Of a stretch of DNA of 64,000 bases, positions 5,409 to 61,143 are shown one piece after another. Every line of letters begins with the position of its first letter. Positions within the stretch are counted from its first letter, which is position 1. The notes beneath the pieces were generated by a model, which had not been told where the DNA came from, searched no databases, and worked only from the letters and a program-made list of their open reading frames with translations. This DNA is from a virus: IMG/VR virus record IMGVR_UViG_3300045988_152944; one strand, written 5' to 3'. The translations under genes were made by a program, and so were the position numbers.

Positions 5409-6551
5409 TTATAACCCCCTTAGTGAAATATTAAATTTATATGTCACGTCCACACCTTCAAGAATTGCCTTGCAGGTAACTTCTAAATTTCCCGCCGGAT
5501 AAAATTTTAATTTTTGCAACGAAAAGCTATTACCGTCCAATTGCTCAAATTTGACATATTTATCTCTAACTGAATCATCAACGGGTTGTGGTGGACTAGA
5601 GGCGTTCATAAGCTGATATGTGGTTGCGACCTTCGTATCGGTAGATACACCAGAAGCATATACCACAGGCTTAAATATCAACGGCTCATTTGAAAGCGTT
5701 TCGGGAATGACAGATGGTTCGTCTAATCGGATTTGATAATCCGTTTCTGTTCCAGTTTCTTCAACAACAACGCTTTCTTTTTGGTTATACGCAATGCGCG
5801 TTTGAAAATTATCGTATTCAGATTTTTGAACAACTTCAAAATAAAGAATAATTGTTCCTAAATCATCATCCACAAATGTACGATTGGAAGCAAATTTGCT
5901 TATTGCTTGTATACGATAAACCTGGTCATATCCAACAATAAATCGTTGGTTGACATAATATTTACGCGTAAACTCGTTGTGCTGCACAATTACGGTTAAG
6001 TCCGATGATTGACTCACCGCTGTCTGATTATACACGATGTTAACGCCAGCAAGCTCTTTTGTTTGAACTGCGGGCTCATAATGATAACGTGTTATACCTT
6101 GAGCGTCTAAGTATTCACTACCTAAAGTGCCGTTGCATCGCGCAATAATAGCACTTGCGGTTGCATCACTAGTATTACGGTTAGTCGTTAACCAAACACT
6201 TTTGTTTTCCTCTGGTTCATCGATATCATATTGGAATGAAAATTTAAATTTTAATCCCAAAGGACAGTGATAGTGAACATCGCGAAATACCACACGACGC
6301 CAGTCGTCAGAAATCGGAACGCCTTTATCGGTTTTAACTGTTTGTAAAACGACCTCCAAGGGGACGAACTTGTTTGTTCCAATTGCCGTCTCTTGTTCAA
6401 TCAATGCGCGATTGGGACGATAATCCCAGTCGGCATCTACCTTATCTTGAATTTCTTTTAGCCAATAATTTTGAGGTACGTAATTGCGTGGAGTTTGTGA
6501 AATTAAATGATAAGGATTTGGTCTGTTTGTAGTATCATAAACTTTACCCAT
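5409..6551 (-). CDS. hypothetical structural protein (380 aa)
   Basis: The track start at 6560 is GTG. The ATG at 6551 has GAGGAGG 8 nt upstream. Confidence 0.55.
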   Translation of the reverse strand: MGKVYDTTNRPNPYHLISQTPRNYVPQNYWLKEIQDKVDADWDYRPNRALIEQETAIGTNKFVPLEVVLQTVKTDKGVPISDDWRRVVFRDVHYHCPLGLKFKFSFQYDIDEPEENKSVWLTTNRNTSDATASAIIARCNGTLGSEYLDAQGITRYHYEPAVQTKELAGVNIVYNQTAVSQSSDLTVIVQHNEFTRKYYVNQRFIVGYDQVYRIQAISKFASNRTFVDDDLGTIILYFEVVQKSEYDNFQTRIAYNQKESVVVEETGTETDYQIRLDEPSVIPETLSNEPLIFKPVVYASGVSTDTKVATTYQLMNASSPPQPVDDSVRDKYVKFEQLDGNSFSLQKLKFYPAGNLEVTCKAILEGVDVTYKFNISLRGL

Positions 6552-19578: not shown

Positions 19579-19760
19579 TTTTGCTTCTAGATAGTTCATT
19601 GAACTTCTCACGACTAAAGTCGTGAGATTCTTGGGAACTTCCGACCACTGCCGGAATATTTACCAAGCTAACCCCGTCGTCCCAACGGTTGTTTATATTT
19701 AGGCTAATTGTTTAAGCCCTTCATTAAGAATATTTATCGCCGCATTAACATCTCTATCAT
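19579..19760 (-). ncRNA. candidate TnpB omega/reRNA (overlaps the tnpB 3' end, extends about 100 nt downstream; guide expected at the low-coordinate end)
   Basis: Canonical position for a TnpB guide RNA. Hairpin CTCACGAC-TAAA-GTCGTGAG at 19607..19626. GTTCAA at 19599..19604 resembles the IS605-family TCAA right-end motif. Ends are approximate. Confidence 0.5.
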
Positions 19761-20796
19761 GATGAGTGTGACAAACGGGGCAATCCCATTCTCTGACTTT
19801 TAGGTCTTTTGTCTCAGTGTTCTTATATCCACAAACGCTACAAGTCTGCGAACTCGGGAAGAATTTGTCAACTTTAATAACCATTCTTCCATACCAACGT
19901 GCTTTATACTCCAACTCTCTTACAAATTCTGACCAAGAAACATCATTGATTGCTTGCGCGAGTTTGTGATTTTTAACCATATTTTTTATTTGCAAATCTT
20001 CAAGACAAATCACATCATTTTCTCGAATGATAACTGTTGAGAGTTTTTGTAGAAAATCTTTACGTTGATTTGAAATTTTCTCATGCAATCTCGCGACTTT
20101 TATTCTTGCTTTGTTACGGTTAGAACCATCTTTTGATTTTCGAGATAATTCTTTTTGTAACTTTGCAAGTTTATTTAACGAGTTTTTGAGATATTTCGGA
20201 TTATTGACAACCTCACCATCGCTCGTGATACAAAACTCTTTAAGACCCAGGTCTATGCCGACCACATTGTTTGTAATCGGCAATGGTTGTATATCCACAT
20301 CCACACAGCACAACGAAACGTAGTATTTTCCGCTGGGCTCTTGTGAAACCGTCGCGTTTACTATTCTACCTTGTGGTACCAACTTGTTTTTCGTTTTTAC
20401 CAATCCAAGTTTTGGAAGTTGAATGTAACCGCCAAGATATTTTATGGTGCCATTCCTATATTTAGAGTTGTAAGAATATTTATGAGTTTTCTTACTTTTG
20501 AAATTTGGAAACCCAGCGTGTTCTTTAAAGAACTTTTTATAAGCATTGTCTAAATCTTTGAGAGAAGATTGAAGAGCAGTGGAATCAACTTCTGTAAGCC
20601 ATTCAAGTTCAGCTTTTAGTTTAGTCATCGCTTTCGAACATTGAACGTAAGTTATATTTTTCTTTTCGGTTTTATATAATTCAATCTTTTCAGCAAGATA
20701 CTTGTTATATACAAATCGGCAACAACCAAATGTTTTTGCAATTATTTCTTTCTGCTTTTCGTTTGGATATATACGATATTTATAAGATTTTTCCAC
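19699..20796 (-). CDS. tnpB: TnpB RNA-guided endonuclease (IS605 OrfB family)
   Basis: [16 protein letters not shown]-terminus; RuvC-I GIDLGLK; RuvC-II E in ICLEDL; zinc finger CSVCGY..CPVCH; Ruv[14 protein letters not shown]. The start is GTG with AAAGGAGG upstream. Confidence 0.9.
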
Positions 20797-21644: not shown

Positions 21645-22226
21645 TTAACTCCTTTTCGCCACCGGTGTACGCAGTACAGCTAAGAATTCTTGTAAGGAAT
21701 AATCAAGGGCGAACAGCTCATCTTCATTTTCTCGCACGAACACCGGAAGTTTAAAACATAAGATCGGATTTTTACTACCAACCACTCTAAATTCTAATTT
21801 AAGCTTCACGGCCTGATGCACCAATTCTAAAAACTTCTTATGATCCTTCATCCCCAACAATTGCATAATTTGTGGCTCGTCGTATTTGATCCACCCTGAG
21901 TCGTGCCAAGTTGTTTTAGCCACATATATTAACACCCCAAACAAGGCTCGAACTTCCTCATTGCTAATATTTAATAAAAAGTTCCATTCGTCCTCATAAA
22001 CCACGAAAGTTGTGAATGTATTTTTGGTATCAAGAGGGGCCTTTAATAAACAGTCCACAATTTGTTCAAAACATTGGTTATTTAATTCAAACCCGCGTTC
22101 ACACTCAAGGAGAAATTCTCGTATAGAGCCGTCGGTCATACCTTCGGCTCTTAACGAACTAATAATTTTTACAACGCTGCTGCCTTTCTCGATCAATTTG
22201 TTACAAATTTGTTCTTCAACTGTCAT
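21645..22226 (-). CDS. hypothetical protein
   Basis: Start moved to the ATG at 22226, after GGAGGAG. Overlaps the end of RNAP exon 2 by 11 nt. Confidence 0.5.
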   Translation of the reverse strand: MTVEEQICNKLIEKGSSVVKIISSLRAEGMTDGSIREFLLECERGFELNNQCFEQIVDCLLKAPLDTKNTFTTFVVYEDEWNFLLNISNEEVRALFGVLIYVAKTTWHDSGWIKYDEPQIMQLLGMKDHKKFLELVHQAVKLKLEFRVVGSKNPILCFKLPVFVRENEDELFALDYSLQEFLAVLRTPVAKRS

Positions 22227-23456
22227 AGTCACAATCTCCTCCAAATAAGTTATCAGCATCGAAGTCAAAATCTAAATCTTGCCCCAAAATTTCTTCCCAC
22301 GCCGCTTGATTCCAATCGTCATCATCACACAACTCGCTGACGCGATCTTCGTGAATCACTTGTAAAGTGTATCGATTACCAAGGTATTCAAATCCAACTT
22401 CGTTTTTCACGGGAATTTGAACAATTCCACGAGGGATTAAATCTAACACGCTTTCGTCTAAAATGTCCCAAGCAAAATCCCAATTAAACTGTTTGTATTC
22501 TTTTGATAAACAATGGCAGTAATAAAGCAATTCTTTGCCACTGAACGACGAAGACTCAATCGCCTCTTGAATTTCCGTTCTGATAAATGTCATTGCCCCG
22601 AATCTGATTTCATCATATTCGTCACGATTCGGTAAATCAATATTATCAACAATACTCTCCAAGGTTTTTACTTGTTTACGCGCTGTATATTTGCGATACA
22701 AATCTTTAACAATAGCAAACCGTTCTTGATCAAATTCAAAACAATCCTCAAAGGTGGGCAACATACTTACCGCGTTTTTATTGAAATTAATATCAAAATC
22801 GACATTTTCAAATTCCTTACACAACACATTCATTATGCACGGTGCGGTGATTAGTGGCGAATACTTTTGATAACGGCGTACCAAATTCATCTCGTCTTCT
22901 GATTTATTAGGTTTGGTTAAAAGTTTTTTAAATTTAACACCAAACATATTTTTGGACGCCATATTATAACTGTTTTCGTATTGTTTAAATTGTTGATTTA
23001 GTTCGGGATATAAATATCTAAAGAAATATGGTTTTTTAGAAATAACCATCGAGTTTCTTTTATATTTATCAGCCTTAACCGCATCAGTGTCATCATCATT
23101 AATTCGGATGAATTTCTTCCACTCTTTCGGCAACTCCGGCGCGGCTGTTCCTTTAATTCGATCAATTTCTTGACCAACAATTTCTCGAAGTAATTTAATA
23201 CGCAATGTAAGTTCGTCTCTTTGCTCTTTTTGGGTGTCTTTTTGGAAAATTCCCTTCATCGCGTGCATTATTGTTGCGCAGTTAGAAAAACCTCCAACCC
23301 CAGTTCCCAATCCGCGAATATCAGTCGCGATTGAATTCTTTAAACAAATCTTTTGAACCGGCACCGCACCTTTCTCATATGTGATGACATTGTGCCATTT
23401 TTGCGCACCCTTGATAAAGATTTTATTATCCGTGGACATTACTACATCTCCGTCAA
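22216..23456 (-). CDS. YonO/RdRP-like single-chain RNA polymerase, exon 2
   Basis: The frame is open upstream of the annotated Met and reads ..VDGDVVMSTDNK. Joining it to exon 1 gives an in-frame 960-aa protein with a DFDGD motif. Confidence 0.6.
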
Positions 23457-23770
23457 CCTTTACACCCTCGGTTTCCCGATATTTCTTAGGGGAGTAGATT
23501 ATCTCATCAACTCATTTCCTGTTACCGTAGTGAGCTGCTCAGCGCTTTGAATGTTGGAGTTTCACCAACACCCTACTCTACTTGCTTACTTTCAAACATA
23601 TTTCTTGTTTGATACGCGTTCGATAATCGTTACACTTTCCTTATTAAAGGCTTAGCACGGTGTTCCCTACGCAGGTTCACCGTTAGCAGGATTTCATCCC
23701 ACACCTTGGATTTCCAAGTTCACTGAGTTATCATTCGATTGTCACCAACCGACGGACCCTGTATACGTTA
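23457..23770 (-). other. group I intron (314 nt, no internal ORF), probably td-like subgroup IA
   Basis: The 5' exon ends in U, which can wobble-pair in GACU/GGUC. The last intron nucleotide is G. Paired elements include ACGGUG/CACCGU, CCUU-UAAU-AAGG, GUUGG-N7-CCAAC and UCGG-GAAA-CCGA. Splicing restores the reading frame and the catalytic motif. Confidence 0.7.
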
Positions 23771-25412
23771 AGTCACTATCGGAGTGTCGTAATGTTGAAG
23801 TATCATATATACTGTAAATGATTCCACTCTTAATATATTGATACCAATAGTCCATATCTTCGGACGATACTACTTTACAAGGGTTGTGTTCGTGCGAATC
23901 AATCATCGGGCTTCGGCACAGGTCAACACAACCCACACTTCGCTGCCTCCAGAAATTTGAATACACTTGGTCAGGCCCAATTAACCCCACCGGTTCCAAC
24001 CCAAGCGCCGATTGACACTGTGCCACGGGATCAGAAATCATAAAACTATAATTTCCTCTCACCCATATCTTACCAATCTTCGCCTTGTTTATCGTCTCAG
24101 CAATATTGCGATATATTTTCTTCTGTACATGAGCGTCTTCCAACATTATCGGGTTTTTAATAATAGCCCTCAACGCCGTGCTTTGCGCCCCATTATACAA
24201 TTCTTTAAAACTGACTTGTTCACCCTTGCAACCCAACATATACAACATTGTATACAATTGGTCACCTGAACAAATCTTTTTAATCCAATCAATTGTCGGT
24301 TGAATCAATTCCAGAATATCATCCTTATTGATATCCAACACTTGCAGATATTGATAATTGGCCAGCACATATTCGTCATCGTACTTTTTATTATATCTCG
24401 CAACTCCCCACTGAATACCAGCCGCATCTACATACTTTTGATATTCATACCAAGATACATAATATTTATACATCTTGAATTGAGATTCACTCAATATAAC
24501 GTCAATATCCTCCAACCTATGTGAAATTCCCCACCGGTCACGAATTGAATCAATACCGTGTTCAGCTCCAAACTCTCGAAAATCAAACGGGACCAAACAC
24601 CCCTTCACAAAAACGCTACGAACAACGAACGACGACGGCGTATACGATAAATTCATATCTTCTGCCCACAGTGCCGCAAACTTAGGATCGACCAATCCCT
24701 GTCCATCAGCGCAATTCAACTCGATGTCCATAGTTCTTTCTTTAATCTGCTTCTTCCCGGTCTCAGGATTAGGGCAAATCCAATCCACCTGTTGGTCCTT
24801 CACCACATTAAAGAAATCCTTAACAACACACACTCTCGGCGTCCTCACCCACATAACACTCGAAAACGCCAACGCAAAATACGCATGATATTTCGCCAAA
24901 TTCATTTCTGAAATCTTGGTGTCCAACCCGCACATCAGATTTTTATACAGGGTGTCATAAAGAGCTTCATTAATAAAGGTAATAGTGTTGCGCCTCATTT
25001 GTCCCGAACCACAACAAAACCTCACATAATGAATACCGTTAACGTCAAATCCGTTCTTGGCCAATTCTTTATATTCTTTTTTGGTCACGACTTCAACGTT
25101 AACAATATCTTTAACAAACAACGCATCTGTCAAAAACCGATTAAGAATACCAGCTTCTTTGGTTCGTCCTTCTCTCTTCGCAGCTCTGATAGCGCGACGA
25201 AATTGTTGGACATCGTTAAAAATCTCTCGATGACTTCTGGTATCATTATAATATTTTCTGATTTGTTGAAAAACCAGATTATCACCAATTGATACCAGTG
25301 CCCCATCGCGAGCTGCCTTAGATTTTGAATAATTAACTATATTTAAGTTGTTCTCTACAATAAAACTAGATTTAAGTTTAAAAACTTGATATAGGTTTTG
25401 TAAATTAGGCAC
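23771..25412 (-). CDS. YonO/RdRP-like single-chain RNA polymerase, exon 1
   Basis: GTG start after AAGAGGAAG. Ends ..CRSPMIDSHEHNPCKVV..TLRHSDSD plus the first nucleotide of the Phe codon. Confidence 0.6.
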
Positions 25413-25414
25413 TC

Positions 25415-25963
25415 TTAATCTTCCTCTTTTTCGCGTTTAATAATATCTAGCAAATCATTCACCGTTTGTGTCAAATCTAAATTTGTCAAAACGTATTTGT
25501 TTTTATATTCCTTCTCGAACTCACAAAACTGGGCGTCTTCCGCAGCCATTCTCTTGTGGACAATTTCAACATCATCGCCTCGTTTCATCAAGAATCCACG
25601 TTGTACATCCGCAGGTACAGAAATCAAAACAGCCACAATTTTTAATGGGTGTTTGTGGAAGTTCCAATACTTCCACAAATCCCCAAGTCCTTTAGGATCG
25701 ATTATATAAAAATCACTATTTAATACTTGCGTAACTGTAGCAAAATATTCCACATCTCCAATTACAGTCTGTGCAATAATATCATCTTTATATTTATCCA
25801 CATCCTCAGGTTGTACAAAAATGTGGGTGTCACCTTCATTAACTCTCTTGGGACGTGTGGTATAAGAACACACTTTCTTCATTCCTGTCAGTTGGCACAC
25901 ACGATCAACGACCGTATCTTTCCCGGCGCCACTTCTGCCAAGTACACAAAATAATGTTTTCAT
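25415..25963 (-). CDS. P-loop nucleoside-monophosphate kinase (guanylate-kinase-like)
   Basis: GRSGAGKDT P-loop and SYTTRPKRVNEGDTHIFV, a GK-type TTRxxR..G..F segment. Confidence 0.6.
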   Translation of the reverse strand: MKTLFCVLGRSGAGKDTVVDRVCQLTGMKKVCSYTTRPKRVNEGDTHIFVQPEDVDKYKDDIIAQTVIGDVEYFATVTQVLNSDFYIIDPKGLGDLWKYWNFHKHPLKIVAVLISVPADVQRGFLMKRGDDVEIVHKRMAAEDAQFCEFEKEYKNKYVLTNLDLTQTVNDLLDIIKREKEED

Positions 25964-25964
25964 T

Positions 25965-26534
25965 TTACTCCTCGATAATCGACGAAGGTTTCCCTACAAG
26001 TTCAGGATAGTTGGCATAAAACTTTACCAACGCTTCCAAGTCTTTAAAGTTATGTATGATATAAAAATCATCCTCATTACCCTCAACATGATTACGTTGA
26101 TGGTTAACGTCGCCAGTAAACAACACAACCATATCAGCTAAATAATTAGCACACATACGATAATCGCTACCGACATATATAACCGAATCTCCAAAAAGAC
26201 GAATTTTTTCTATATCCGCTGCTGTTGCTGTTCTATAAGCTTCAGCATAACTTTCAATCTCGATAGTGAGCTTGCAGTTCTCCGCAAGTTCTGTGATGGT
26301 ATCAAGAAAATCTTCCGCACCTTCTCGAATCCACAAGTCGGGCACATTCAGACTTTTGATACAATTAATGATTTCGAAATCATGATCTTGACCACAGAAC
26401 GTTTGGAATTTGTTTTCGTAAAAATCGATTACAGAATAATTAGTGTTGTATTTTTCATTAAGTTTTTTGGTTATTGTCTCCGCACAATTAAAAATTACAT
26501 TGTCTTCTACAATTAGATGTAAGTGTTTGCTCAT
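25965..26534 (-). CDS. hypothetical protein, first gene of the leftward operon
   Basis: ORF track; weak SD. Confidence 0.5.
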   Translation of the reverse strand: MSKHLHLIVEDNVIFNCAETITKKLNEKYNTNYSVIDFYENKFQTFCGQDHDFEIINCIKSLNVPDLWIREGAEDFLDTITELAENCKLTIEIESYAEAYRTATAADIEKIRLFGDSVIYVGSDYRMCANYLADMVVLFTGDVNHQRNHVEGNEDDFYIIHNFKDLEALVKFYANYPELVGKPSSIIEE

Positions 26535-26608
26535 AGTAGTGTAGTTCCTTAGAAGTTATATAGATTCCCAAAGAAAGAGGATATTCTCTTTCTTCTTATT
26601 ATATTTAT

Positions 26609-26649
26609 ATTATAACACATATCATATTTAATATCAACCTATGATGACA
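26609..26649 (-). promoter_or_regulatory. sigma-A/sigma-70-type promoter (TGTCA-N7-TTGATA-N17-TATAAT) for the leftward operon
   Basis: -10 at 26609..26614, -35 at 26632..26637, TGTCA at 26645..26649 (minus strand). Confidence 0.7.
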
Positions 26650-26683
26650 TTTTTATAAAATTTTTAACATTTTTTAATTTTTC

Positions 26684-26724
26684 TGTCATTGTAGGTTGAC
26701 TTTTCTTTTCAAAGTTGTTATAAT
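26684..26724 (+). promoter_or_regulatory. promoter TGTCA-N7-TTGACT-N17-TATAAT pointing into the AT core
   Basis: -35 at 26696..26701, -10 at 26719..26724. Confidence 0.7.
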
Positions 26725-26879
26725 TTGGGTGGTGGGCGGGTATAGATAAGAAGATCTTTTTTATTTATATATAAATATATAATATATATTCTATAATTAT
26801 AACATATAATATGTTAAATATATATTAAAATATAATATAATAAAAAATAGTGATCTCATTCTCCCGACCACCCACCCCT

Positions 26880-26920
26880 ATTATACACAGAAAAATACCA
26901 TTTGTCAACTACCAATGACA
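26880..26920 (-). promoter_or_regulatory. promoter TGTCA-N7-TTGACA-N17-TATAAT, convergent with the 26684 promoter
   Basis: -10 at 26880..26885, -35 at 26903..26908 (minus strand). Confidence 0.7.
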
Positions 26921-26996
26921 GAAAATACAAAAAAATAAAAAAATATTTTCCACAAAGCAAAACTACCACGCATGCTCACAGAATCTTAAAGAATTA

Positions 26997-27037
26997 TGTC
27001 ATCTACGGTTGACTTTTGTTGGCACATAGTGTATAAT
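26997..27037 (+). promoter_or_regulatory. early rightward promoter TGTCA-N7-TTGACT-N17-TATAAT
   Basis: -35 at 27009..27014, -10 at 27032..27037. Confidence 0.75.
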
Positions 27038-27139
27038 ATTTATATATAAGATATAAAAGGAGTATAGTGATGTAACAATCCTAATTAAATAGAGCAACAA
27101 ATTCCAACCAAATAACCAACTATGCTATGATGAGGCTAC

Positions 27140-27337
27140 ATGACACGTAAATCTAATCCTACAACAACAACAGCAACCCCGCAACCACAAAAACCACCAA
27201 AATCCCAAACTCCGAATCCTCAACCTCCGACGACTCGACAATTGCCCCGCGCAATTATCCACAAAAAGAAGAAACCCAAAAATCTTCCGCCGGAACCAAT
27301 AACCGAAGATTCTTACATAGATCAAGTTATGAGTTAA
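27140..27337 (+). CDS. Pro/Thr/Lys/Gln-rich 65-aa ORF in a G-depleted leader; coding status uncertain
   Basis: ORF track; only a GAGG 4 nt before the ATG; low-complexity sequence. Confidence 0.3.
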   Translation: MTRKSNPTTTTATPQPQKPPKSQTPNPQPPTTRQLPRAIIHKKKKPKNLPPEPITEDSYIDQVMS

Positions 27338-27362
27338 ACGCCTAACCCCAAGGAGCAACCAA

Positions 27363-27731
27363 ATGTGTATTCTTCAAAAAACACTGCCTTATACTACCAA
27401 AACACGCCAACGTCTGTCAAGGTACCCAACCATTTACATTATTTGCTATTTCGCACACGTCGGTTGTTTATCTTTCCCTTTCACCGGGAAGCATGATAAT
27501 AAAGGTCGCCCCCTTGTGTACCAGTTTGATGATCACGATGGTCTATATCCCGAGTATTGCCTTCGCAACATTAACGAAGTCACTTCCGTTCACATCTGTG
27601 AATGGACGACGAATGCTGACGACGTACAACGACTCATAACCAAATGGCAAACCAAATACGACGAATATCGCGCCGCAATGATCAAAACTTATGAGGAAAA
27701 CTTACAAGCCTATGAGAATAACTCTAACTAA
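27363..27731 (+). CDS. MCIL-N-terminus protein, paralog 1
   Basis: AAGGAG upstream. Shares MCIL.K.LP..KT and PLVY.FDDH.G.YPEY.LR with 28640..29071. Confidence 0.65.
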   Translation: MCILQKTLPYTTKTRQRLSRYPTIYIICYFAHVGCLSFPFTGKHDNKGRPLVYQFDDHDGLYPEYCLRNINEVTSVHICEWTTNADDVQRLITKWQTKYDEYRAAMIKTYEENLQAYENNSN

Positions 27732-28437
27732 CCAAAGCTGTTTTGACTTACTCAAAACCACGCCAGATAAATCAGTCGACTTGGTTCTCATCAATCCGCC
27801 CTACGAGGTCTCTAGAGATACAAATTTCCAATCAGGGGAACCCAAAGGCGCTGACACCGACCGCTTTCGCGTGTCGATGGATTTCGGCGAGTGGGATAAT
27901 AATTTCACGGGGTTGGATTTGGTAATCAAAGAGTGCTACAGACTCTTAAAAGACGGCGGAACTTTAATATGCTTTTACGATCTGTGGAAGCTCACAACCT
28001 TAAAACACTACTTTGAGCTCGCGAACTTTAAACAGCTCCGTTTCATCGAATGGGTGAAAACAAATCCGGTCCCGCTTAATAGCAAAACGAACTACCTCAC
28101 AAATTCCAGAGAGATAGCCATCGTGGGTGTGAAAAAAGGGAAGCCGACATTCAATTCAGAGTATGACAATGGCATTTATAATTTTCCCATATGTCACGAC
28201 AAAGGCAGATTCCACCCCACCCAAAAACCTGTCGCATTGCTTGAAGACTTGATTCTCAAACATTCGCACGAGAACGATACTGTTCTCGATTGTTTCGCCG
28301 GGAGCGGTTCGACCGCTGTCGCTGCCCATAACACGAACAGGAATTTCATCGGATGTGAACTGTCGAAAGAGTATTTCGACAAAACCTTGCAACGGTTCGA
28401 CGCACTAGGGTTCAAATACACGGAGGCGGACCTATGA
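27691..28437 (+). CDS. DNA methyltransferase, beta-class N4/N6 type, probably N6-adenine
   Basis: Motif IV DLVLINPPY precedes motif I DCFAGSGSTAVAA. An alternative start at 27712 is possible. Confidence 0.8.
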   Translation: MRKTYKPMRITLTNQSCFDLLKTTPDKSVDLVLINPPYEVSRDTNFQSGEPKGADTDRFRVSMDFGEWDNNFTGLDLVIKECYRLLKDGGTLICFYDLWKLTTLKHYFELANFKQLRFIEWVKTNPVPLNSKTNYLTNSREIAIVGVKKGKPTFNSEYDNGIYNFPICHDKGRFHPTQKPVALLEDLILKHSHENDTVLDCFAGSGSTAVAAHNTNRNFIGCELSKEYFDKTLQRFDALGFKYTEADL

Positions 28438-28634
28438 CCCTCAAAGAGTACATCAAAAAACATCCGTATAACAGCGACGGCGATAACATTATTGAATTCC
28501 TTCGCCACGACATTAAACTCCGTGCGCTGGTGCTAAGCCAGCTCGCGAGAGACGTAAGCATCGATATTCAATTGCTGTTGTATGAGAACGAATCAAAACA
28601 AAAACAATTAGACAAGCAAAATAATAAGGAGTAA
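28434..28634 (+). CDS. hypothetical small protein
   Basis: ATGA overlap with the methyltransferase stop; GGAGG upstream. Confidence 0.55.
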   Translation: MTLKEYIKKHPYNSDGDNIIEFLRHDIKLRALVLSQLARDVSIDIQLLLYENESKQKQLDKQNNKE

Positions 28635-28639
28635 TCACT

Positions 28640-29071
28640 ATGTGCATATTAAGAAAACATCTACCCGATAATCAAAAAACTAAAGACAAGCTCGCCAAGC
28701 TGCCAAAGATTTACCTCGTGGCCTGTTGGGCAAGTTATGGTACCCTCGAGTTTCCATTCCCAATAAAATATAAAAAGGTGAAAGATAAAGACACCAAAGT
28801 TGTCCGATATATTCCGCTGGTTTACGACTTCGATGATCATAACGGTGTTTACCCCGAGTACGTCCTCAGACCAATAACATCAACGACTACAGGATTTATA
28901 AGAGGTTGGTTTTATACCAAACAACAGGCGAAGGATGTCGCTGATGTCTACGAGAGCTATCGACGTCAGAAAGCGAGGGAGTATGCAACACAAATAGATG
29001 CCGAGTTTAGGTACAGAATGTCGCTTGAAAGAGAAGAATTAAATAACACAACGCTGAAATTGAACGATTGA
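28640..29071 (+). CDS. MCIL-N-terminus protein, paralog 2
   Basis: AAGGAG upstream; see 27363..27731. Confidence 0.65.
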   Translation: MCILRKHLPDNQKTKDKLAKLPKIYLVACWASYGTLEFPFPIKYKKVKDKDTKVVRYIPLVYDFDDHNGVYPEYVLRPITSTTTGFIRGWFYTKQQAKDVADVYESYRRQKAREYATQIDAEFRYRMSLEREELNNTTLKLND

Positions 29072-58773: not shown

Positions 58774-59241
58774 TTATATTCTCTCTTCGTATAGTTTTTG
58801 TAGATTAGGAAGGTATAGTGCGTAATGCACGATGGTAACTTTACCATAGTAAATAACCCCCTCCCCGTCGTGCGCCAATAGACTCCAACCACAGAGTTCG
58901 TGACACTCCATTATTTCGCGCAAGATGTCTATGGGGTAAGTTTCTGACCATTTGCCGAGCGCTTCGTTGTAAGCCTTTTGCTCTATCTTTTCTGCTTGAG
59001 TAACAAACTCTTTGCCGAGCGCTTGTAGATCGGTGTTGTCGTTTACTGGTAGGGACACACTATAAGTTTCCAGTTTACCACGGAGTTGATTATAAGTTTC
59101 ACTTCCGGGAGATTCGGGATACGCAATGATGACTTCGTTCCCCCACACATTGAGCGATGAGTGGTAACAGGGGTAATTTAGGTTTCTAAGTGCGTCGGTA
59201 ACTGTTTGTCTGAGTGCGTTGTCTAATTCACGATTAATCAT
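58774..59241 (-). CDS. hypothetical protein
   Basis: ORF track. Confidence 0.55.
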   Translation of the reverse strand: MINRELDNALRQTVTDALRNLNYPCYHSSLNVWGNEVIIAYPESPGSETYNQLRGKLETYSVSLPVNDNTDLQALGKEFVTQAEKIEQKAYNEALGKWSETYPIDILREIMECHELCGWSLLAHDGEGVIYYGKVTIVHYALYLPNLQKLYEERI

Positions 59242-59539
59242 TTGAACCTCTTAACAACTCTTCCTCGGTGATGTTCTCGTCGTCGTCGCACTCGTATGCG
59301 ATTTCGAAGTTGGTATCAAACCGCGTGATTTTCGAGAACGGCGTACCAAGACCGAGGTCGTACTCACCTTCTGGGAGGGGTTTGGTGCACCTGTGATGAG
59401 CGAAAAAGAAGTCGTTGAGGGCTTGCGAGAGGGGAAGACCGTATTCTTGATAAACCCACAGGCCATCGCCGTCGTGTTTGCCCAAATAAAGAGCGTCTCC
59501 GCATTGTTTGCATCTTAAGTAGATTCTATTGTTTGCCAT
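59234..59539 (-). CDS. hypothetical protein
   Basis: ORF track; N-terminal CKQCG. Confidence 0.55.
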   Translation of the reverse strand: MANNRIYLRCKQCGDALYLGKHDGDGLWVYQEYGLPLSQALNDFFFAHHRCTKPLPEGEYDLGLGTPFSKITRFDTNFEIAYECDDDENITEEELLRGSND

Positions 59540-59540
59540 A

Positions 59541-60041
59541 TTATACCTCCTCTTGTTTCGGGAACCAATAAATCAAGACTGCGAGCGGCAGTCGAGTGTC
59601 TTGGCGCTTTTCTGTAACTATCACAAAGTCGTTAAGCAGTAGTTTATTATTCTCGATACCATCTGCCATTTTTGCAAGGAATGCTCGGAACAGATTTTTA
59701 TTGATGTCGGTGAGAGTTTTATAACCGAGGGTTCGGTCCATCACCAATTCAAACACACGTGGAAAGAAACAATCTATTTGCTGGGTCTGATTTGGGTCCG
59801 AGATAGTCTGCTGGATTCGTGCGGTGTCAGCAGCGTCCGGTTTCCCTAAGCGCAGACGGTGTGTAACCTCGTCGTCAACCGTGGTGGCATCGTACGAGAA
59901 ATAATACGTTTTATTGGGAATGAGAAAATCTACAGCTTGTGTAAGCTCTAGGAAAAGAGATAAGAGAATCTCTTTGGTGGACATGTTATATATCGGCAAG
60001 ACGATTTTGCTCACCTCGGTAGTGATGGTCGATTGCGTCAT
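59541..60041 (-). CDS. hypothetical protein
   Basis: ORF track. Confidence 0.55.
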   Translation of the reverse strand: MTQSTITTEVSKIVLPIYNMSTKEILLSLFLELTQAVDFLIPNKTYYFSYDATTVDDEVTHRLRLGKPDAADTARIQQTISDPNQTQQIDCFFPRVFELVMDRTLGYKTLTDINKNLFRAFLAKMADGIENNKLLLNDFVIVTEKRQDTRLPLAVLIYWFPKQEEV

Positions 60042-60208
60042 GCTTTAATCTCCTCTAGAACCTTGTTATAGATTGCTTCGGCTGCTTCCTGTGCGACTGG
60101 ACAAATGCTCTTTTCTTCCATTCCTGATAGAAACGAATCACACTTAAAATCACATACATTGCATATATATTTTGCTATTTCTTCAATTTGTTCTTGTTTC
60201 GTTTTCAT
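60038..60208 (-). CDS. hypothetical 56-aa Cys-containing protein (below the track cutoff)
   Basis: GAGGAG 6 nt before the ATG at 60208. ATGA overlap with the next gene. Begins MKTKQEQIEEIAKYICNVCDFKCDSF. Confidence 0.5.
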   Translation of the reverse strand: MKTKQEQIEEIAKYICNVCDFKCDSFLSGMEEKSICPVAQEAAEAIYNKVLEEIKA

Positions 60209-60211
60209 AAT

Positions 60212-60559
60212 CTACTCCTCAAGCATTTTCTTCGCTTTGTATAAAGCAACAGCAGTTTCTTTGCCTATTACATACCACCCATTACAAGAATATTCCTCAT
60301 AGTCGTCATCTGGGTTTCTTTCGAGTTTACACCCATACATATCCATATACCACCGCAATGCAGTTTTCAACTGAGCAATCTCTTTCGCCGTTTCTTTTCG
60401 GACTTCTTCGGCTTTTCGGTAGTTGTTTCCATAGAGAACGCTTGCAACTTCACTTTTATGCATCGGGTTTAATGAAACGCACTTGTCTAAAAGCTTCATA
60501 ATATCTTTTATTTCGTTTCTTTCTTTTGCCATTTCGTATATTTGTTCTTTTTTGGTCAT
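60212..60559 (-). CDS. hypothetical protein
   Basis: ORF track. Confidence 0.55.
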   Translation of the reverse strand: MTKKEQIYEMAKERNEIKDIMKLLDKCVSLNPMHKSEVASVLYGNNYRKAEEVRKETAKEIAQLKTALRWYMDMYGCKLERNPDDDYEEYSCNGWYVIGKETAVALYKAKKMLEE

Positions 60560-60807
60560 TTTACACTCCTTATTATGTTATAATATATCGTGTCGCCGTT
60601 GTTGAATGTGATTTGTCCACACGGGACCGCGCACTCTTTTTCGGTGCAGAACTGCAACGAGTTATCGTTTGCGTAATAATCCAAACGTGAAAAACTATCG
60701 CCGCGTGTAATCATTTTATCGCCAATAGCAATAACGTCATTGCCTGCTTCTATCCACGATTTTACCTGTGTAGTTTTGAACAATTTTTTAAGTTCCGAAA
60801 GCGTCAT
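60556..60807 (-). CDS. hypothetical small protein
   Basis: ORF track; 4-nt overlap with the next gene. Confidence 0.55.
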   Translation of the reverse strand: MTLSELKKLFKTTQVKSWIEAGNDVIAIGDKMITRGDSFSRLDYYANDNSLQFCTEKECAVPCGQITFNNGDTIYYNIIRSVK

Positions 60808-60819
60808 TTTCTTAACTCC

Positions 60820-61143
60820 TTATTCTTCCCAACCACATTCGGGGCAATAATGACCCCTAACTTCACTAACCTCGTAAGCAGGGCGCCCATCGATGTAACC
60901 AACGTGGGTATCAACAAATGCGTCGAGTTCTTCTCCACAATCAGGACAACGCCCATCTTCGATGAGTCCTTCGCGGAGTGTGCGGCGTGTTTTTTTCACC
61001 CAATCTTTAATGAATTGGAAGACTTCTTCGGGGGTGTGTTTTTTCAGGTCATCTGAAAAATCCTCGAGAGCGGTGAGGGCTTCAAATTGGTCGTCGTAAT
61101 CCTCACTGATTGTGAGATCTAAACTGGTTAATAATAATTCCAT
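60820..61143 (-). CDS. zinc-ribbon protein
   Basis: CPDCGEEL..CPECGW; promoter at 61166..61203. Confidence 0.6.
   Translation of the reverse strand: MELLLTSLDLTISEDYDDQFEALTALEDFSDDLKKHTPEEVFQFIKDWVKKTRRTLREGLIEDGRCPDCGEELDAFVDTHVGYIDGRPAYEVSEVRGHYCPECGWEE

Follow-up and report, generated by a model that had tools for sequence, protein, structure and literature searches.

Introduction

Several described systems resemble the locus reported here in parts of their layout. In the lambda PR'-qut system (6S RNA) and in RfaH/ops (JUMPStart), a strong constitutive host promoter heads a very long operon, and a short conserved element, kept across differing promoters, lies on the non-template strand within the first ~20 transcribed bases. 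The origins ori(uvsY) and ori(34) of phage T4, ColE1 RNA II and the mitochondrial LSP-CSBII region share a promoter that leads into a G-rich transcribed block, together with an easily unwound tract. T4 origin transcripts also serve downstream genes. At CSBII, a G-quadruplex (G4) or hybrid G4 stabilises the R-loop (PMC3488243, PMC4176368). In coliphage 186 (pR/pL), P2 (Pe/Pc) and pCF10 (prgQ/prgX), face-to-face promoters of unequal strength, located beside repressor genes, serve opposite gene sets with overlaps of ~60-220 nt. Finally, the Firmicute 5' stabilisers (the 5' hairpins of ermC and aprE, and the STAB-SD of cryIIIA) combine a structured or G-rich, Shine-Dalgarno-like element near the 5' end with a long leader.

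In terms of position, the counterpart of our locus is the yonP-yonR region of phage SPbeta, a divergent region upstream of the yonO operon, with structural genes downstream. Polymerases of the YonO type consist of a single chain and are distantly related to cellular RNA polymerases. In SPbeta, YonO starts upstream of yonK and yonJ (PMC5467207), and the opening point of SPbeta-like genomes has been located between yonR and yonP (bioRxiv 10.1101/2021.11.22.469490).

The DNA analysed here, referred to as the window in the following, is a stretch of 64,000 nucleotides (IMG/VR record IMGVR_UViG_3300045988_152944). It is part of an uncultured ~135-kb phage with a YonO-type single-subunit RNA polymerase, for which bin labels and the hosts of relatives suggest a host among the gut Clostridia. 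Between its divergent leftward and rightward operons lies a hub of four promoters. It occupies the same place as the yonP-yonR region of SPbeta, which, however, lacks convergent consensus promoters, a four-tract G block and an A+T-only core, and the YonO proteins are ~28% identical. In the following, we describe the hub, a start module of which it appears to hold two head-on copies, and the explanations that may account for them.

Results

Four promoters between divergent operons

A promoter scan located four near-consensus sigma-70/sigma-A-type promoters within 26609-27037, at the coordinates given by an earlier reading of this DNA from its letters alone (the sequence-only reading). All have -35 and -10 elements at a 17-bp spacing, within the 17 +/- 1 bp of sigma-A promoters:

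26609..26649, minus strand: PL2, outer leftward promoter, 11/12, TG-extended (scan span 26637..26609); -35 TTGATA at 26637..26632, -10 TATAAT at 26614..26609, TGTCAT half-site at 26649..26644
26684..26724, plus strand: PR1, inner rightward promoter, TGTCAT-N5-GTTGACT-17-TATAAT, 11/12, TG-extended (26696..26724)
26880..26920, minus strand: PL1, inner leftward promoter, TTGACA-17-TATAAT, 12/12 (26908..26880), with TGTCA-N8-TGACA
26997..27037, plus strand: PR2, outer rightward promoter, TGTCAT-N5-GTTGACT-17-TATAAT, 11/12 (27009..27037)

The hub is real and unusual: both strands of the window together hold 15 promoter-like sites of at least 11/12, and four of them fall inside these 430 bp. Common to all four is TGTCAT-N5-GTTGA, just upstream of and into the -35, a pattern with nine matches at up to one mismatch against 1.7 expected, a number never reached in shuffles. 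All four also carry an operator-like TGTCA-N8-TGACA, a candidate operator to which one regulator could bind. Behind PL2 come a hairpin-containing AT-rich leader and the ribosome-binding site (RBS) of a 189-aa ORF, and behind PR2 an AT-rich leader and an AAGGAG RBS. Judged by order and orientation, PR1 is the upstream partner of PR2 in a rightward tandem pair, and PL1 that of PL2 in a leftward one. The two inner promoters face each other, with predicted starts near 26731 (PR1) and 26873 (PL1); from these, the overlap of ~143 nt between their predicted transcripts follows directly.

Two inverted arms around an A+T-only core

The inner promoters are part of a larger symmetrical structure:

26680..26926, no strand: imperfect inverted repeat, whole; arms of ~86 nt each at 26680-26765 (left) and 26841-26926 (right)
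26727..26740, plus strand: G block of PR1, GGGTGGTGGGCGGG, G tracts of 3, 2, 3 and 3, on the non-template strand, straddling the predicted start at ~26731
26863..26878, minus strand: G block of PL1, GGGGTGGGTGGTCGGG, G tracts of 4, 3, 2 and 3, straddling the predicted start at ~26873
26757..26849, no strand: A+T-only core, 93 nt, 97% A+T

Aligned with the reverse complement of the right arm, the left arm is identical in 63 of 93 columns (~68%). The alignment score of 22, against a maximum of 12 in 1000 shuffles (mean -6, sd 5), bears out the large imperfect inverted repeat that the sequence-only reading had described, and the succession of G block, GATC (26753 and 26852) and T6 run that it noted after each inner promoter can be read directly in the letters. 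The G block of PR1 is followed by TATAGATAAG, as it is in the group-B relatives described below, and the motif GGGTGGNNGG has no other occurrence in the window.

No duplex in the entire window is less stable than the core (z about 5.0-5.5). The core had been described as both extremely A+T-rich and partly palindromic in itself; the composition stands, whereas its own palindromy does not (z = -0.78 against dinucleotide shuffles), and in relatives, too, the self-complementarity of the core (z -1.9 to +2.0) is not beyond chance. The palindrome is made by the arms alone, not by the core. As a single strand, the whole repeat folds with the G block paired to the opposite C block, and single-strand folding is better than in shuffles across relatives (z -3.4 to -7.3). 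Via the opposite C block, a 5' GC-clamped hairpin is predicted on each inner transcript (-34.5 and -39.7 kcal/mol; z -3.5 and -4.4).

A scan of 26600-27140 found no terminator-like sites, and an Rfam search of the hub gave no match. Against 50,697 GenBank phage records, the hub had no meaningful match with megablast or blastn, and short G-block queries returned chance-level matches only. The window has three perfect DnaA boxes, two of them near the hub; we dropped them as evidence, since the near-hub boxes are not conserved in relatives.

The inner promoters point into the far operons

The two operons extend over 20-26 kb in the window and begin as follows:

22216..26534, minus strand: start of the leftward unit (PL1 and PL2), four ORFs
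25965-26534, minus strand: 189-aa ORF, first of the leftward unit
25415-25963, minus strand: guanylate/dNMP-kinase-like ORF, leftward unit
23742-25412 and 22216-23439, minus strand: YonO-type RNA polymerase, two ORFs, leftward unit
27140..29071, plus strand: start of the rightward unit (PR1 and PR2), small ORFs and a methyltransferase
from 27140, plus strand: 65-aa P/T-rich ORF, first of the rightward unit
27363-27731 and 28640-29071, plus strand: two paralogous small ORFs, rightward unit
27691-28437, plus strand: N6/N4 DNA methyltransferase, rightward unit

Further left, the leftward unit holds exonuclease, terminase and portal genes; over its 26 kb, down to position 1, its strand has no further near-consensus sigma-A promoter. 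The rightward operon looks early, with the methyltransferase, PcfJ and DpnD/PcfM.

The sequence-only reading had assigned no gene to the inner promoters. We come to a different view: each of them has the outer promoter and operon of the opposite side downstream of it in the same orientation, with no terminator found between, so that each probably serves the far operon. Other lineages point the same way, as the same module occurs there as a unidirectional unit upstream of genes.

A Pfam sweep of the 110 ORFs of the window (64 of ~135 kb, with most ORFs unannotated) found no NusG/NGN, KOW, Q-like or sigma domain and no protelomerase domain, and no replication genes or initiator-type replication protein were found among these ORFs. 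Downstream, we identified no terminators that transcription would have to override.

A recurrent start module in IMG/VR

We searched IMG/VR for the pattern TTGAC-N18-TATAAT-N0-4-GGGTGGNNGG, with its C-rich complement as a control, and obtained 86 stretches against none for the control. They comprise 70 distinct modules, which fall into 36 clusters by their pattern-unconstrained positions, and thus into about 36 sequence contexts. A looser pattern, TATAAT-N0-4-GGGTGGNNGG, gave mostly chance hits among the matches listed and was superseded by the full-promoter pattern.

In 64 of the 70 distinct modules, a further GGG comes after the pattern, and 60 fit the form G3-4/T/G2-3/N1-2/G2-4/N1-2/G3-5, followed by A and AT-rich sequence. 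The G tracts are kept and the loop bases vary (C, T, A, TT or TA in loop 2; mostly C, A or TC in loop 3, with T and CT once each), with G4Hunter values of 2.0-2.8. At the level of sequence, four short-loop tracts with variable loops constitute a G-quadruplex motif. ViennaRNA with G4 folding predicted a two-layer G4 in four of five four-tract sequences tried, the PL1 strand being the exception. With the predicted start 7 nt after the -10, however, the RNA lacks the first G tract and no G4 is predicted for it alone, which makes a G4 cap at the RNA 5' end doubtful. Ten pattern matches without four G tracts have a 5'-terminal hairpin at the same place instead, a hint at a function of the RNA 5' end.

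Of 48 modules with enough sequence, 41 have an RBS-preceded ORF downstream on the same strand, for which the ~50% expected by orientation is the sole yardstick. The module lies a median of 270 nt upstream of this ORF, and a second same-strand promoter-like site is found downstream in 28 of the 48. Several modules head terminase or structural operons, and in unrelated smaller phages the module is located upstream of the large terminase gene. Head-on pairs occur only in the family of the hub; elsewhere, modules are single and unidirectional.

An Rfam search of 11 module-bearing loci found nothing at the modules. Upstream ORFs of ~120-130 aa in groups D and E and in the L281/L292/L306 lineage were considered as candidate regulators and set aside; they have no Pfam match, and by motif, the upstream ORFs of the terminase-linked groups D and E are PD-(D/E)xK nuclease-like. 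The literature that we searched on YonO promoters and on G4 or R-loop elements at phage promoters and origins contains no description of the module, and the combination of a consensus promoter and a four-run G block is apparently undescribed.

Conservation among YonO phages

The hub family consists of three diverged lineages, with YonO identities of 99%, 89% and 81-83%. TTGAC-17-TATAAT and the G block are kept in all three, while the spacers and the AT core change: across relatives, the -35, the -10 and the 17-bp spacing are invariant and the spacer sequences diverge. Conserved in these diverged relatives is thus the arrangement of convergent consensus promoters, G blocks and A+T-only core. 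The L010/L212 lineage has lost both GATC and the T6 run, so that Dam-type sites and intrinsic terminators do not count among the conserved parts. The core keeps its A+T-only composition at variable sequence and lengths of 84-216 nt, with an (ATT)n microsatellite in some relatives, and the predicted overlap of the inner transcripts ranges from 140 to ~270 nt. The two G blocks of a genome have not been maintained as identical copies, and this speaks against selection for pairing of a cruciform or telomere type. In the window and in six relatives, the sequence continues uninterrupted across the hub. A small peptide encoded behind PL1 was discarded for lack of conservation, the ORF, as read by eye, having 20 codons in the window against about 9 (L007) and 4 (L010).

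In a scan of 80 YonO loci, an AT island flanked by paired G and C blocks was found only in the close family. A duplex-stability scan of distant YonO phages revealed no common AT island, with the exception of L062, and an Rfam search of the yonO gap found nothing. The group-B YonO phages (55% identity) have a hub without PL1: leftward, a PL2-like promoter leads to a ~180-aa ORF and yonO, and rightward, module, AT tract and P2 lead to exonuclease, terminase and portal genes. Their second module is ~70 kb away on the same strand. The variant with an AT tract adjoins yonO in the hub family, in group B and in the 28%-identical lineage L285.

Discussion

Proposed promoter-proximal leaders of two long units

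What we observe directly is the anatomy of the hub, together with its conservation, strand specificity and placement relative to genes. For its function, we favour, at a little under even confidence, the interpretation that two long transcription units have the inner modules as their promoter-proximal leaders. The hub would then be the place where both units start, with two head-on copies of a recurrent phage start module. This module comprises a consensus host sigma-A promoter and a four-tract G block on the non-template strand, which begins 0-4 nt past the -10 and straddles the predicted start, followed by an A+T-only tract in YonO-encoding lineages, and by a second, plain promoter and the RBS of the first gene. 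PR1 would read via the shared AT tract, past PR2, into the rightward operon, and PL1 via the same tract, past PL2, into the leftward operon with yonO, exonuclease, terminase and portal. Each long unit would accordingly yield two classes of transcripts, with and without the G-block leader. The G block itself may work just as host RNA polymerase begins elongation, by way of a first hybrid rich in rG:dC and of a displaced strand prone to G4 formation, and thereby mark or modify the transcription complexes or RNA 5' ends bound for a 20-26-kb operon. Initiation at these sites, read-through and the action of the G block are what we infer from the arrangement of the sequence. The head-on placement is lineage-specific, and through their ~140-nt antisense overlap the two units probably also interfere with each other.

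The logic would be that of lambda PR'/qut, RfaH/ops or the Firmicute 5' stabilisers. Like qut and ops, the G block is promoter-proximal, on the non-template strand and at the head of a long operon; its GGCGG..TAG also faintly resembles ops, GGCGGTAG. Unlike these systems, it comes with no Q, NusG or RfaH paralogue (in the 64 of ~135 kb covered here, with most ORFs unannotated), no fixed -10-like pause element and no identified downstream terminator. The missing factor and terminators make membership of the qut/ops class less probable, though the mode of action may still be similar. A further difference from QBE and ops is the element itself, which is a four-tract G block, and the fact that two modules face each other. 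With the 5' stabilisers, the module shares the 5'-terminal hairpins of the ten deviating matches, and GGGGUGG could pair with the 16S 3' end. A canonical GGAGG, however, is not what is conserved, the predicted RNA starts past the first G tract, and known stabilisers have no A+T-only tract. Taken alone, the leader interpretation leaves two things unexplained, namely the near-pure A+T spacer of the YonO lineages and the assembly breaks discussed below. Moreover, strong head-on promoters 140 nt apart should collide, which makes them an odd way to feed two operons.

A possible transcription-activated origin

Clearly less probable is a transcription-activated replication origin assisted by an R-loop or G4. 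The G-rich 5' part of the PR1 or PL1 RNA would stay on its C-rich template while the displaced G-rich strand folds, the A+T-only tract would serve as the unwinding element for replisome loading, and two head-on modules would make replication bidirectional. As at T4 ori(uvsY), the transcripts may double as mRNA. At the sequence level, a promoter, a G-rich initial transcript and an extreme candidate for DNA unwinding are indeed combined in the manner of R-loop origins, and it is the A+T-only makeup of this least stable duplex that is conserved, rather than its sequence or length. The cumulative GC-skew minimum also lies at 26-28 kb, but the skew switches together with the coding strand and is therefore not independent evidence. 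Elsewhere, the YonO phage L062 has iterons and AT-rich tandem repeats in the equivalent divergent region, and the module of L308 is followed by two perfect DnaA boxes, although those near the hub are not conserved. The absence of a visible initiator from the window makes an initiator-independent start conceivable; the hub differs from R-loop origins in having no replication genes nearby. It differs further in that, in small phages, modules without an AT tract directly precede terminase operons, and that the module is tied strongly to downstream genes on its own strand, which is not required of origins. Its modules are also convergent, an arrangement not known for the T4, ColE1 or mitochondrial R-loop origins, and convergent transcription would drive positive supercoils into the core and disfavour melting while both promoters fire.

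A possible opening device and YonO entry site

A rather unlikely alternative combines G block and A+T-only tract into a sigma-independent opening device. A single firing of host polymerase would suffice for the G-rich RNA and the G4-prone displaced strand to hold a bubble or R-loop open beside the melt-prone tract, and this pre-opened site might be used by YonO for late transcription or by the replisome for origin firing, neither of which would melt the DNA itself.

In a narrower form, which we judge to be quite unlikely, the hub is the entry or priming site of the phage's sigma-less YonO RNA polymerase alone: host polymerase, G4 and melt-prone AT tract would stabilise a bubble or R-loop at which YonO starts late transcription. 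The association of the AT-tract module with yonO in three lineages is consistent with this. So are the group-B module at the head of the exonuclease/terminase/portal operon, a position like that of the SPbeta YonO start (PMC5467207), the lack of an internal sigma-A promoter in the late leftward unit, and the fact that a YonO promoter is undefined in the literature we searched. Against this, the SPbeta region between the published primer-extension primers has neither G block nor AT-only tract, the module carries perfect host -35 and -10 elements, PR1 heads an early-looking operon, and modules are present in small phage contigs without detectable YonO in the available flanks.

A possible convergent-transcription switch

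The head-on pair might also have been selected for mutual interference between the leftward and rightward units, with collision, occlusion, antisense or dsRNA over ~140 nt setting their balance or timing, as at coliphage 186 pR/pL. The geometry fits: the overlap is of the size known from such switches, each inner promoter is aimed at the opposite operon, the arrangement is kept in all three lineages of the hub family, and one regulator could bind the shared TGTCA-N8-TGACA. Nevertheless, we regard a switch as improbable. Known switches need promoters of unequal strength or a one-sided regulator, whereas both inner promoters are near consensus, each is backed by a second co-directional promoter, and no regulator was identified among the ORFs of the window. 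The length of the overlap varies among relatives. The inner promoters, unlike those of known switches, carry a conserved G block, and the module is ancestral as a unidirectional unit, in group B and others, so that a switch does not explain G block and AT tract.

Possible packaging ends and structural roles

A packaging role had also been raised, and the hub could be a pac site or physical genome end, with G blocks flanking a cut in the AT core. What remains of it is the positional analogy with the opening point of SPbeta, set against one cultured relative. In at least 15 contigs, the end lies no more than 125 nt past a G block; one of them, of 135,452 bp, both starts and ends inside the hub (L003/L185 and L205). 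Two GenBank records, the cultured Enterocloster phage CB457P1 and MT835481, a scaffold of an uncultured phage from a faecal sample, have AT-only DNA upstream of yonO at their very start. These ends are scattered, however (26737, 26740, 26766, 26780 and about 26865), with no single cut site, and extreme A+T next to a G4 motif is plausibly a purely technical cause of assembly breaks. Other assemblies continue straight through the hub, and in the cultured PMBT24 the AT-only region upstream of yonO lies at 8.8-9.5 kb, while PhageTerm places the pac site at position 1. The G block is also common to phages with unrelated terminases (phrog_2 and phrog_38), which would be unexpected of a terminase recognition site. 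We thus consider a packaging function very unlikely.

Highly improbable, finally, are a structural palindrome (cruciform or telomere resolution), a decoy for host RNA polymerase, itself an unlikely sink, and two T-run-ended non-coding RNAs: single-strand folding beyond shuffles, very strong promoters with no RBS directly behind and T6 runs after both G blocks of the window speak for them, but the arms are only ~68% identical around a non-palindromic centre, the G blocks of one genome are not co-maintained, and the single modules of other phages form no palindrome. Telomere resolution can be rejected, given the imperfect arms, the centre, the lack of a protelomerase domain among the 110 ORFs and the read-through in relatives. 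An intrinsic-terminator small RNA is disfavoured, with no terminator-like site in 26600-27140, no conserved T runs (they are absent in L010/L212, as is GATC) and no Rfam match.

Implications

In practical terms, G block and AT tract are a recurrent break point in metagenomic phage assemblies and can be mistaken for genome ends. Should the ~16-nt four-tract G block control elongation, RNA stability, R-loops or polymerase hand-off, it would count as a regulatory element widespread among phages, and it could also be used as a compact part to build strong, insulated transcription units in Firmicutes. If the opening device were real, the hand-off of transcription or replication from host to phage would reside in a ~20-nt motif common to many phages. 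For the questions of how YonO phages organise early and late transcription and of what YonO recognises (cf. PMC5467207), the hub offers a concrete, conserved sequence.

Gene content around the hub

On the left of the hub, the promoter region at ~26609-27037, the minus strand carries an ORF of 189 aa, one resembling guanylate kinase, yonO, and genes for an SbcD-like exonuclease, a TnpB-type transposase, the large terminase and the portal. To its right, on the plus strand, follow small uncharacterised ORFs, an N6/N4 DNA methyltransferase, PcfJ, and DpnD/PcfM-like and HNH proteins. The yonO ORF (23742-25412, minus strand; 556 aa) encodes a YonO-type single-subunit RNA polymerase of the Pfam RdRP family, with tblastn matches to yonO of SPbeta, the Enterocloster phages CB457P1 and PMBT24, and Clostridium phage c-st (best 36% identical). 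Among the 110 window ORFs, no replication-protein, sigma, NusG, Q or protelomerase domain was found. Metagenomes and viromes yielded close relatives as contigs of 95-141 kb, one of which (135,452 bp) starts and stops inside the hub and thereby sets the genome size. The MAG bin labels on close copies name Clostridia and also Treponema, the latter deemed implausible. AT-only DNA upstream of yonO forms the start of GenBank entries CB457P1 and MT835481; the former finishes in a run of at least 50 T. In SPbeta, the yonN-yonK spacer (L313 2654-4334 = SPBc2 59153-60833) comprises ~1.7 kb of non-coding, seemingly structured DNA.

The yonO gene itself is seemingly split. A gap (23440-23741, minus strand) separates it from ORF 22216-23439, whose 407-aa product matches the full-length YonO-like polymerase of PMBT24 at residues 507-725 (E 1e-15). 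This 300-nt non-coding gap is highly conserved in the related contigs L007 and L010, its 3' part is kept in group B (YonO phages described below), and in L309 it measures ~990 nt and, read by eye, appears to contain an ORF of the GIY-YIG type. The gap probably represents a self-splicing intron; a search against Rfam gave no match. The late operon also carries, between the yonO region and the exonuclease, an IS605 OrfB/TnpB-type gene (19699-20796, minus strand; Cas12f-like TNB domain), related copies of which occupy varying positions in group-B loci. The rightward operon opens with paralogous small ORFs of unassigned function (27363-27731 and 28640-29071; 122 and 143 aa, both starting MCIL.K.LP...); in L253 and L259, homologues come after the contig start on the PL1 side. 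GATC is depleted over the whole window (142 observed vs ~232 expected from base composition), and this coexists with the phage methyltransferase gene at 27691-28437.

Promoters, G blocks and AT core

A consensus scan recovered all four near-consensus promoters that the sequence-only reading had placed in the hub.

Features of the hub (promoters from the consensus scan)
26637..26609, minus strand: PL2, outer leftward promoter, 11/12, TG-extended
26696..26724, plus strand: PR1, inner rightward promoter, 11/12, TG-extended
26727-26740, plus strand: G block of PR1, 1-2 nt 3' of the -10
26757-26849: AT core, 93 nt, 97% A+T
26863-26878, minus strand: G block of PL1, 1-2 nt 3' of the -10
26908..26880, minus strand: PL1, inner leftward promoter, TTGACA-17-TATAAT, 12/12
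27009..27037, plus strand: PR2, outer rightward promoter, 11/12

The entire window holds 15 sites of at least 11/12 on both strands, four of them within the 430 bp of the hub. Common to all four hub promoters is TGTCAT-N5-GTTGA, which, with at most one mismatch, has 9 matches vs 1.7 expected, a count reached by none of 100 shuffles. It corresponds to a palindrome, TGTCA-N8-TGACA, with the -35 hexamer as its right half; 10 sites of this kind occur in the window vs 2.5 expected (26632-27014, 48335, 50693, 51997, 54324, 54360 and 61198). The palindrome marks a promoter family of the window phage and could be the operator for a single dimeric regulator; it is absent from group-B relatives. Perfect DnaA boxes (TTATCCACA) are found at 25794, 27255 and 51840, all on the plus strand and two of them at most 1 kb from the hub. 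Relatives do not retain the relaxed boxes at 26881 and 26946.

The inner promoters do lie within the arms of an inverted repeat: 26680-26765 and the reverse complement of 26841-26926 are identical in 63 of 93 aligned columns, with a score of 22 (1000 shuffles: mean -6, maximum 12). The GGGTGGNNGG motif is confined to the two G blocks and found nowhere else in the 64 kb. No other duplex in the window is as unstable as the core, for any of the window sizes tried (z 4.6-5.5). Its description as AT-rich and partly palindromic stands in its first half only, as its self-complementarity is not in excess of dinucleotide shuffles (z -0.78), and the folding of the whole interval is due solely to G block-C block pairing.

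We compared three lineages of the family: the window with L005 and L006, L007-L009 (YonO 89% identical) and L010/L212 (81-83%). All three retain the convergent promoter pair, with invariant TTGAC and TATAAT and 17-bp spacers of diverged sequence, a G block beginning 0-3 nt past each -10, and an A+T-only core of unconstrained sequence and length (84-216 nt), which is an (ATT)n run in L212 and consists of ATATAG-type repeats in L010. GATC and the T6 runs of the arms are lost from L010/L212. Within a genome, the two G blocks are less alike than are copies of the same arm in different genomes, which points to selection on each arm's own promoter and G block, not on arm-arm pairing.

A widespread promoter module

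A scan of IMG/VR with TTGAC-N18-TATAAT-N0-4-GGGTGGNNGG matched 86 stretches, whereas the identical promoter followed by the complementary CCCACCNNCC matched none. The 86 stretches represent 70 distinct modules, whose 38 pattern-free positions fall into 36 clusters at 70% identity. A further GGG follows the pattern in 64 of the 70, and 60 fit G3-4, T, G2-3, N1-2, G2-4, N1-2, G3-5, then A and AT-rich sequence; the loops are variable, precisely one tract has two Gs, and G4Hunter scores are 2.0-2.8. Some groups have the same continuation as the window; it is GGGGTGGTTGGGCGGGAATAGATAA in group B and GGGTGGTGGGCGGGTATAGATAAG in PR1. Among the 48 modules with 1.6 kb of downstream sequence, a same-strand, RBS-preceded ORF follows in 41 (median 270 nt) and a second promoter-like site in 28. 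The module is widespread and normally unidirectional; head-on pairs occur only in the window's family.

In group B, whose YonO is 55% identical to the window's, the hub equals that of the window minus PL1. Leftward, a PL2-like promoter precedes ~210-aa and ~180-aa ORFs and yonO; rightward, the module is followed by an AT tract of ~90 nt, then by a second promoter and homologues of the exonuclease, terminase and portal. A second module lies ~70 kb off on the same strand, in one example directly after a terminator-like hairpin and before a collagen-like gene. Between AT tract and second promoter, group B has a Z-DNA-prone alternating purine-pyrimidine run, ACGTGCGCGCGTGCGTGTATATAT (L268 ~2440-2470; L146 ~6318-6330). 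Groups D and E, unrelated smaller phages, carry the module between a PD-(D/E)xK-like nuclease ORF and packaging genes; 0.3-2.5 kb separate it from the large terminase downstream, and no AT-only tract is present. In L308 (~5,800, minus strand), two perfect DnaA boxes (TGTGGATAA CC TGTGGATAA) lie at most 20 nt after one module. A further YonO phage, L062, carries 29-nt iterons (TGATAGCGTnAGGCTATG-type; four to five copies) and then six 13-nt AT-only tandem repeats (2300-2520) within the non-coding divergent region of 2.8 kb that precedes its yonO, a layout resembling classical origins or partition sites.

Possible roles of the inner promoters and the G block

The inner promoters had been thought to serve no gene. 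Each is, however, co-directional with the outer promoter and operon across the hub, and our scan found no terminator-like site in between. The most fitting view is thus that PR1 and PL1 are the upstream partners, equipped with G blocks, in two tandem pairs, and that their predicted leaders cross one another. The 26-kb leftward unit, with yonO and the structural genes, contains no other near-consensus sigma-A promoter, and homologues of its distal genes are directly headed by a module in group B; it is thus plausible that PL1 is present in the window's family because late genes moved behind yonO.

Since the G block is strand-specific, fixed beside the -10 and located at the heads of long operons, it would seem to act at or right after initiation by the host polymerase. 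One possibility is a pausing or loading function in the manner of qut or ops; another is a role at the 5' end of the RNA. Ten pattern matches without four tracts have a 5'-terminal hairpin at the G-block position instead, and a 5' hairpin closed by the opposite C block is predicted for the inner transcripts of the window. With a start 7 nt past the -10, the RNA would lack tract 1 and no G4 is predicted for RNA alone; the full four-tract motif is then present only in the displaced DNA strand.

A promoter, a G-rich first transcript and an extreme unwinding element are also the anatomy of the T4, ColE1 and mitochondrial CSBII origins, and an R-loop replication origin would account for the A+T-only requirement. 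We nevertheless consider an origin at the hub unlikely: replication genes are absent nearby, the switch in skew cannot be told apart from the change of coding strand, and G blocks also precede terminase operons without an AT tract. That the module is an entry site for YonO, whose promoter is undefined in the literature searched (PMC5467207), is improbable; the AT-tract variant accompanies yonO across deep divergence, but the SPbeta start region is without such a motif.

A pac site at the hub is very improbable. The SPbeta genome opens between yonR and yonP (bioRxiv 10.1101/2021.11.22.469490), and at least 15 independent contigs stop at most 125 nt downstream of a G block (L001-L004, L211, L253, L257, L259, L270, L288, L296, L137, L250, L300, L164 and others). 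Yet these ends are scattered, the AT-only region upstream of yonO in PMBT24 is 9 kb from its PhageTerm pac site, and the G block is common to phages with unrelated terminases. The contig ends, like the AT-only starts of CB457P1 and MT835481, are either a recurrent technical assembly break at G4 and extreme A+T, the simpler account, or a hint of physical ends. Given the hub's anatomy and conservation, with no excess self-complementarity in the core and T6 lost in L010/L212, cruciform, telomere, polymerase-sink and terminated-small-RNA roles are rejected or unlikely.

Phages commonly have promoters in tandem, divergent and convergent arrangement, and a strong-promoter hub where operons diverge is equally ordinary. 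In Rfam and the literature searched, we found no description of a consensus promoter joined to a conserved four-tract G block, of the co-occurrence of this block and an A+T-only tract in YonO phages, or of head-on module pairing. We file the module as a putative promoter-proximal leader element.
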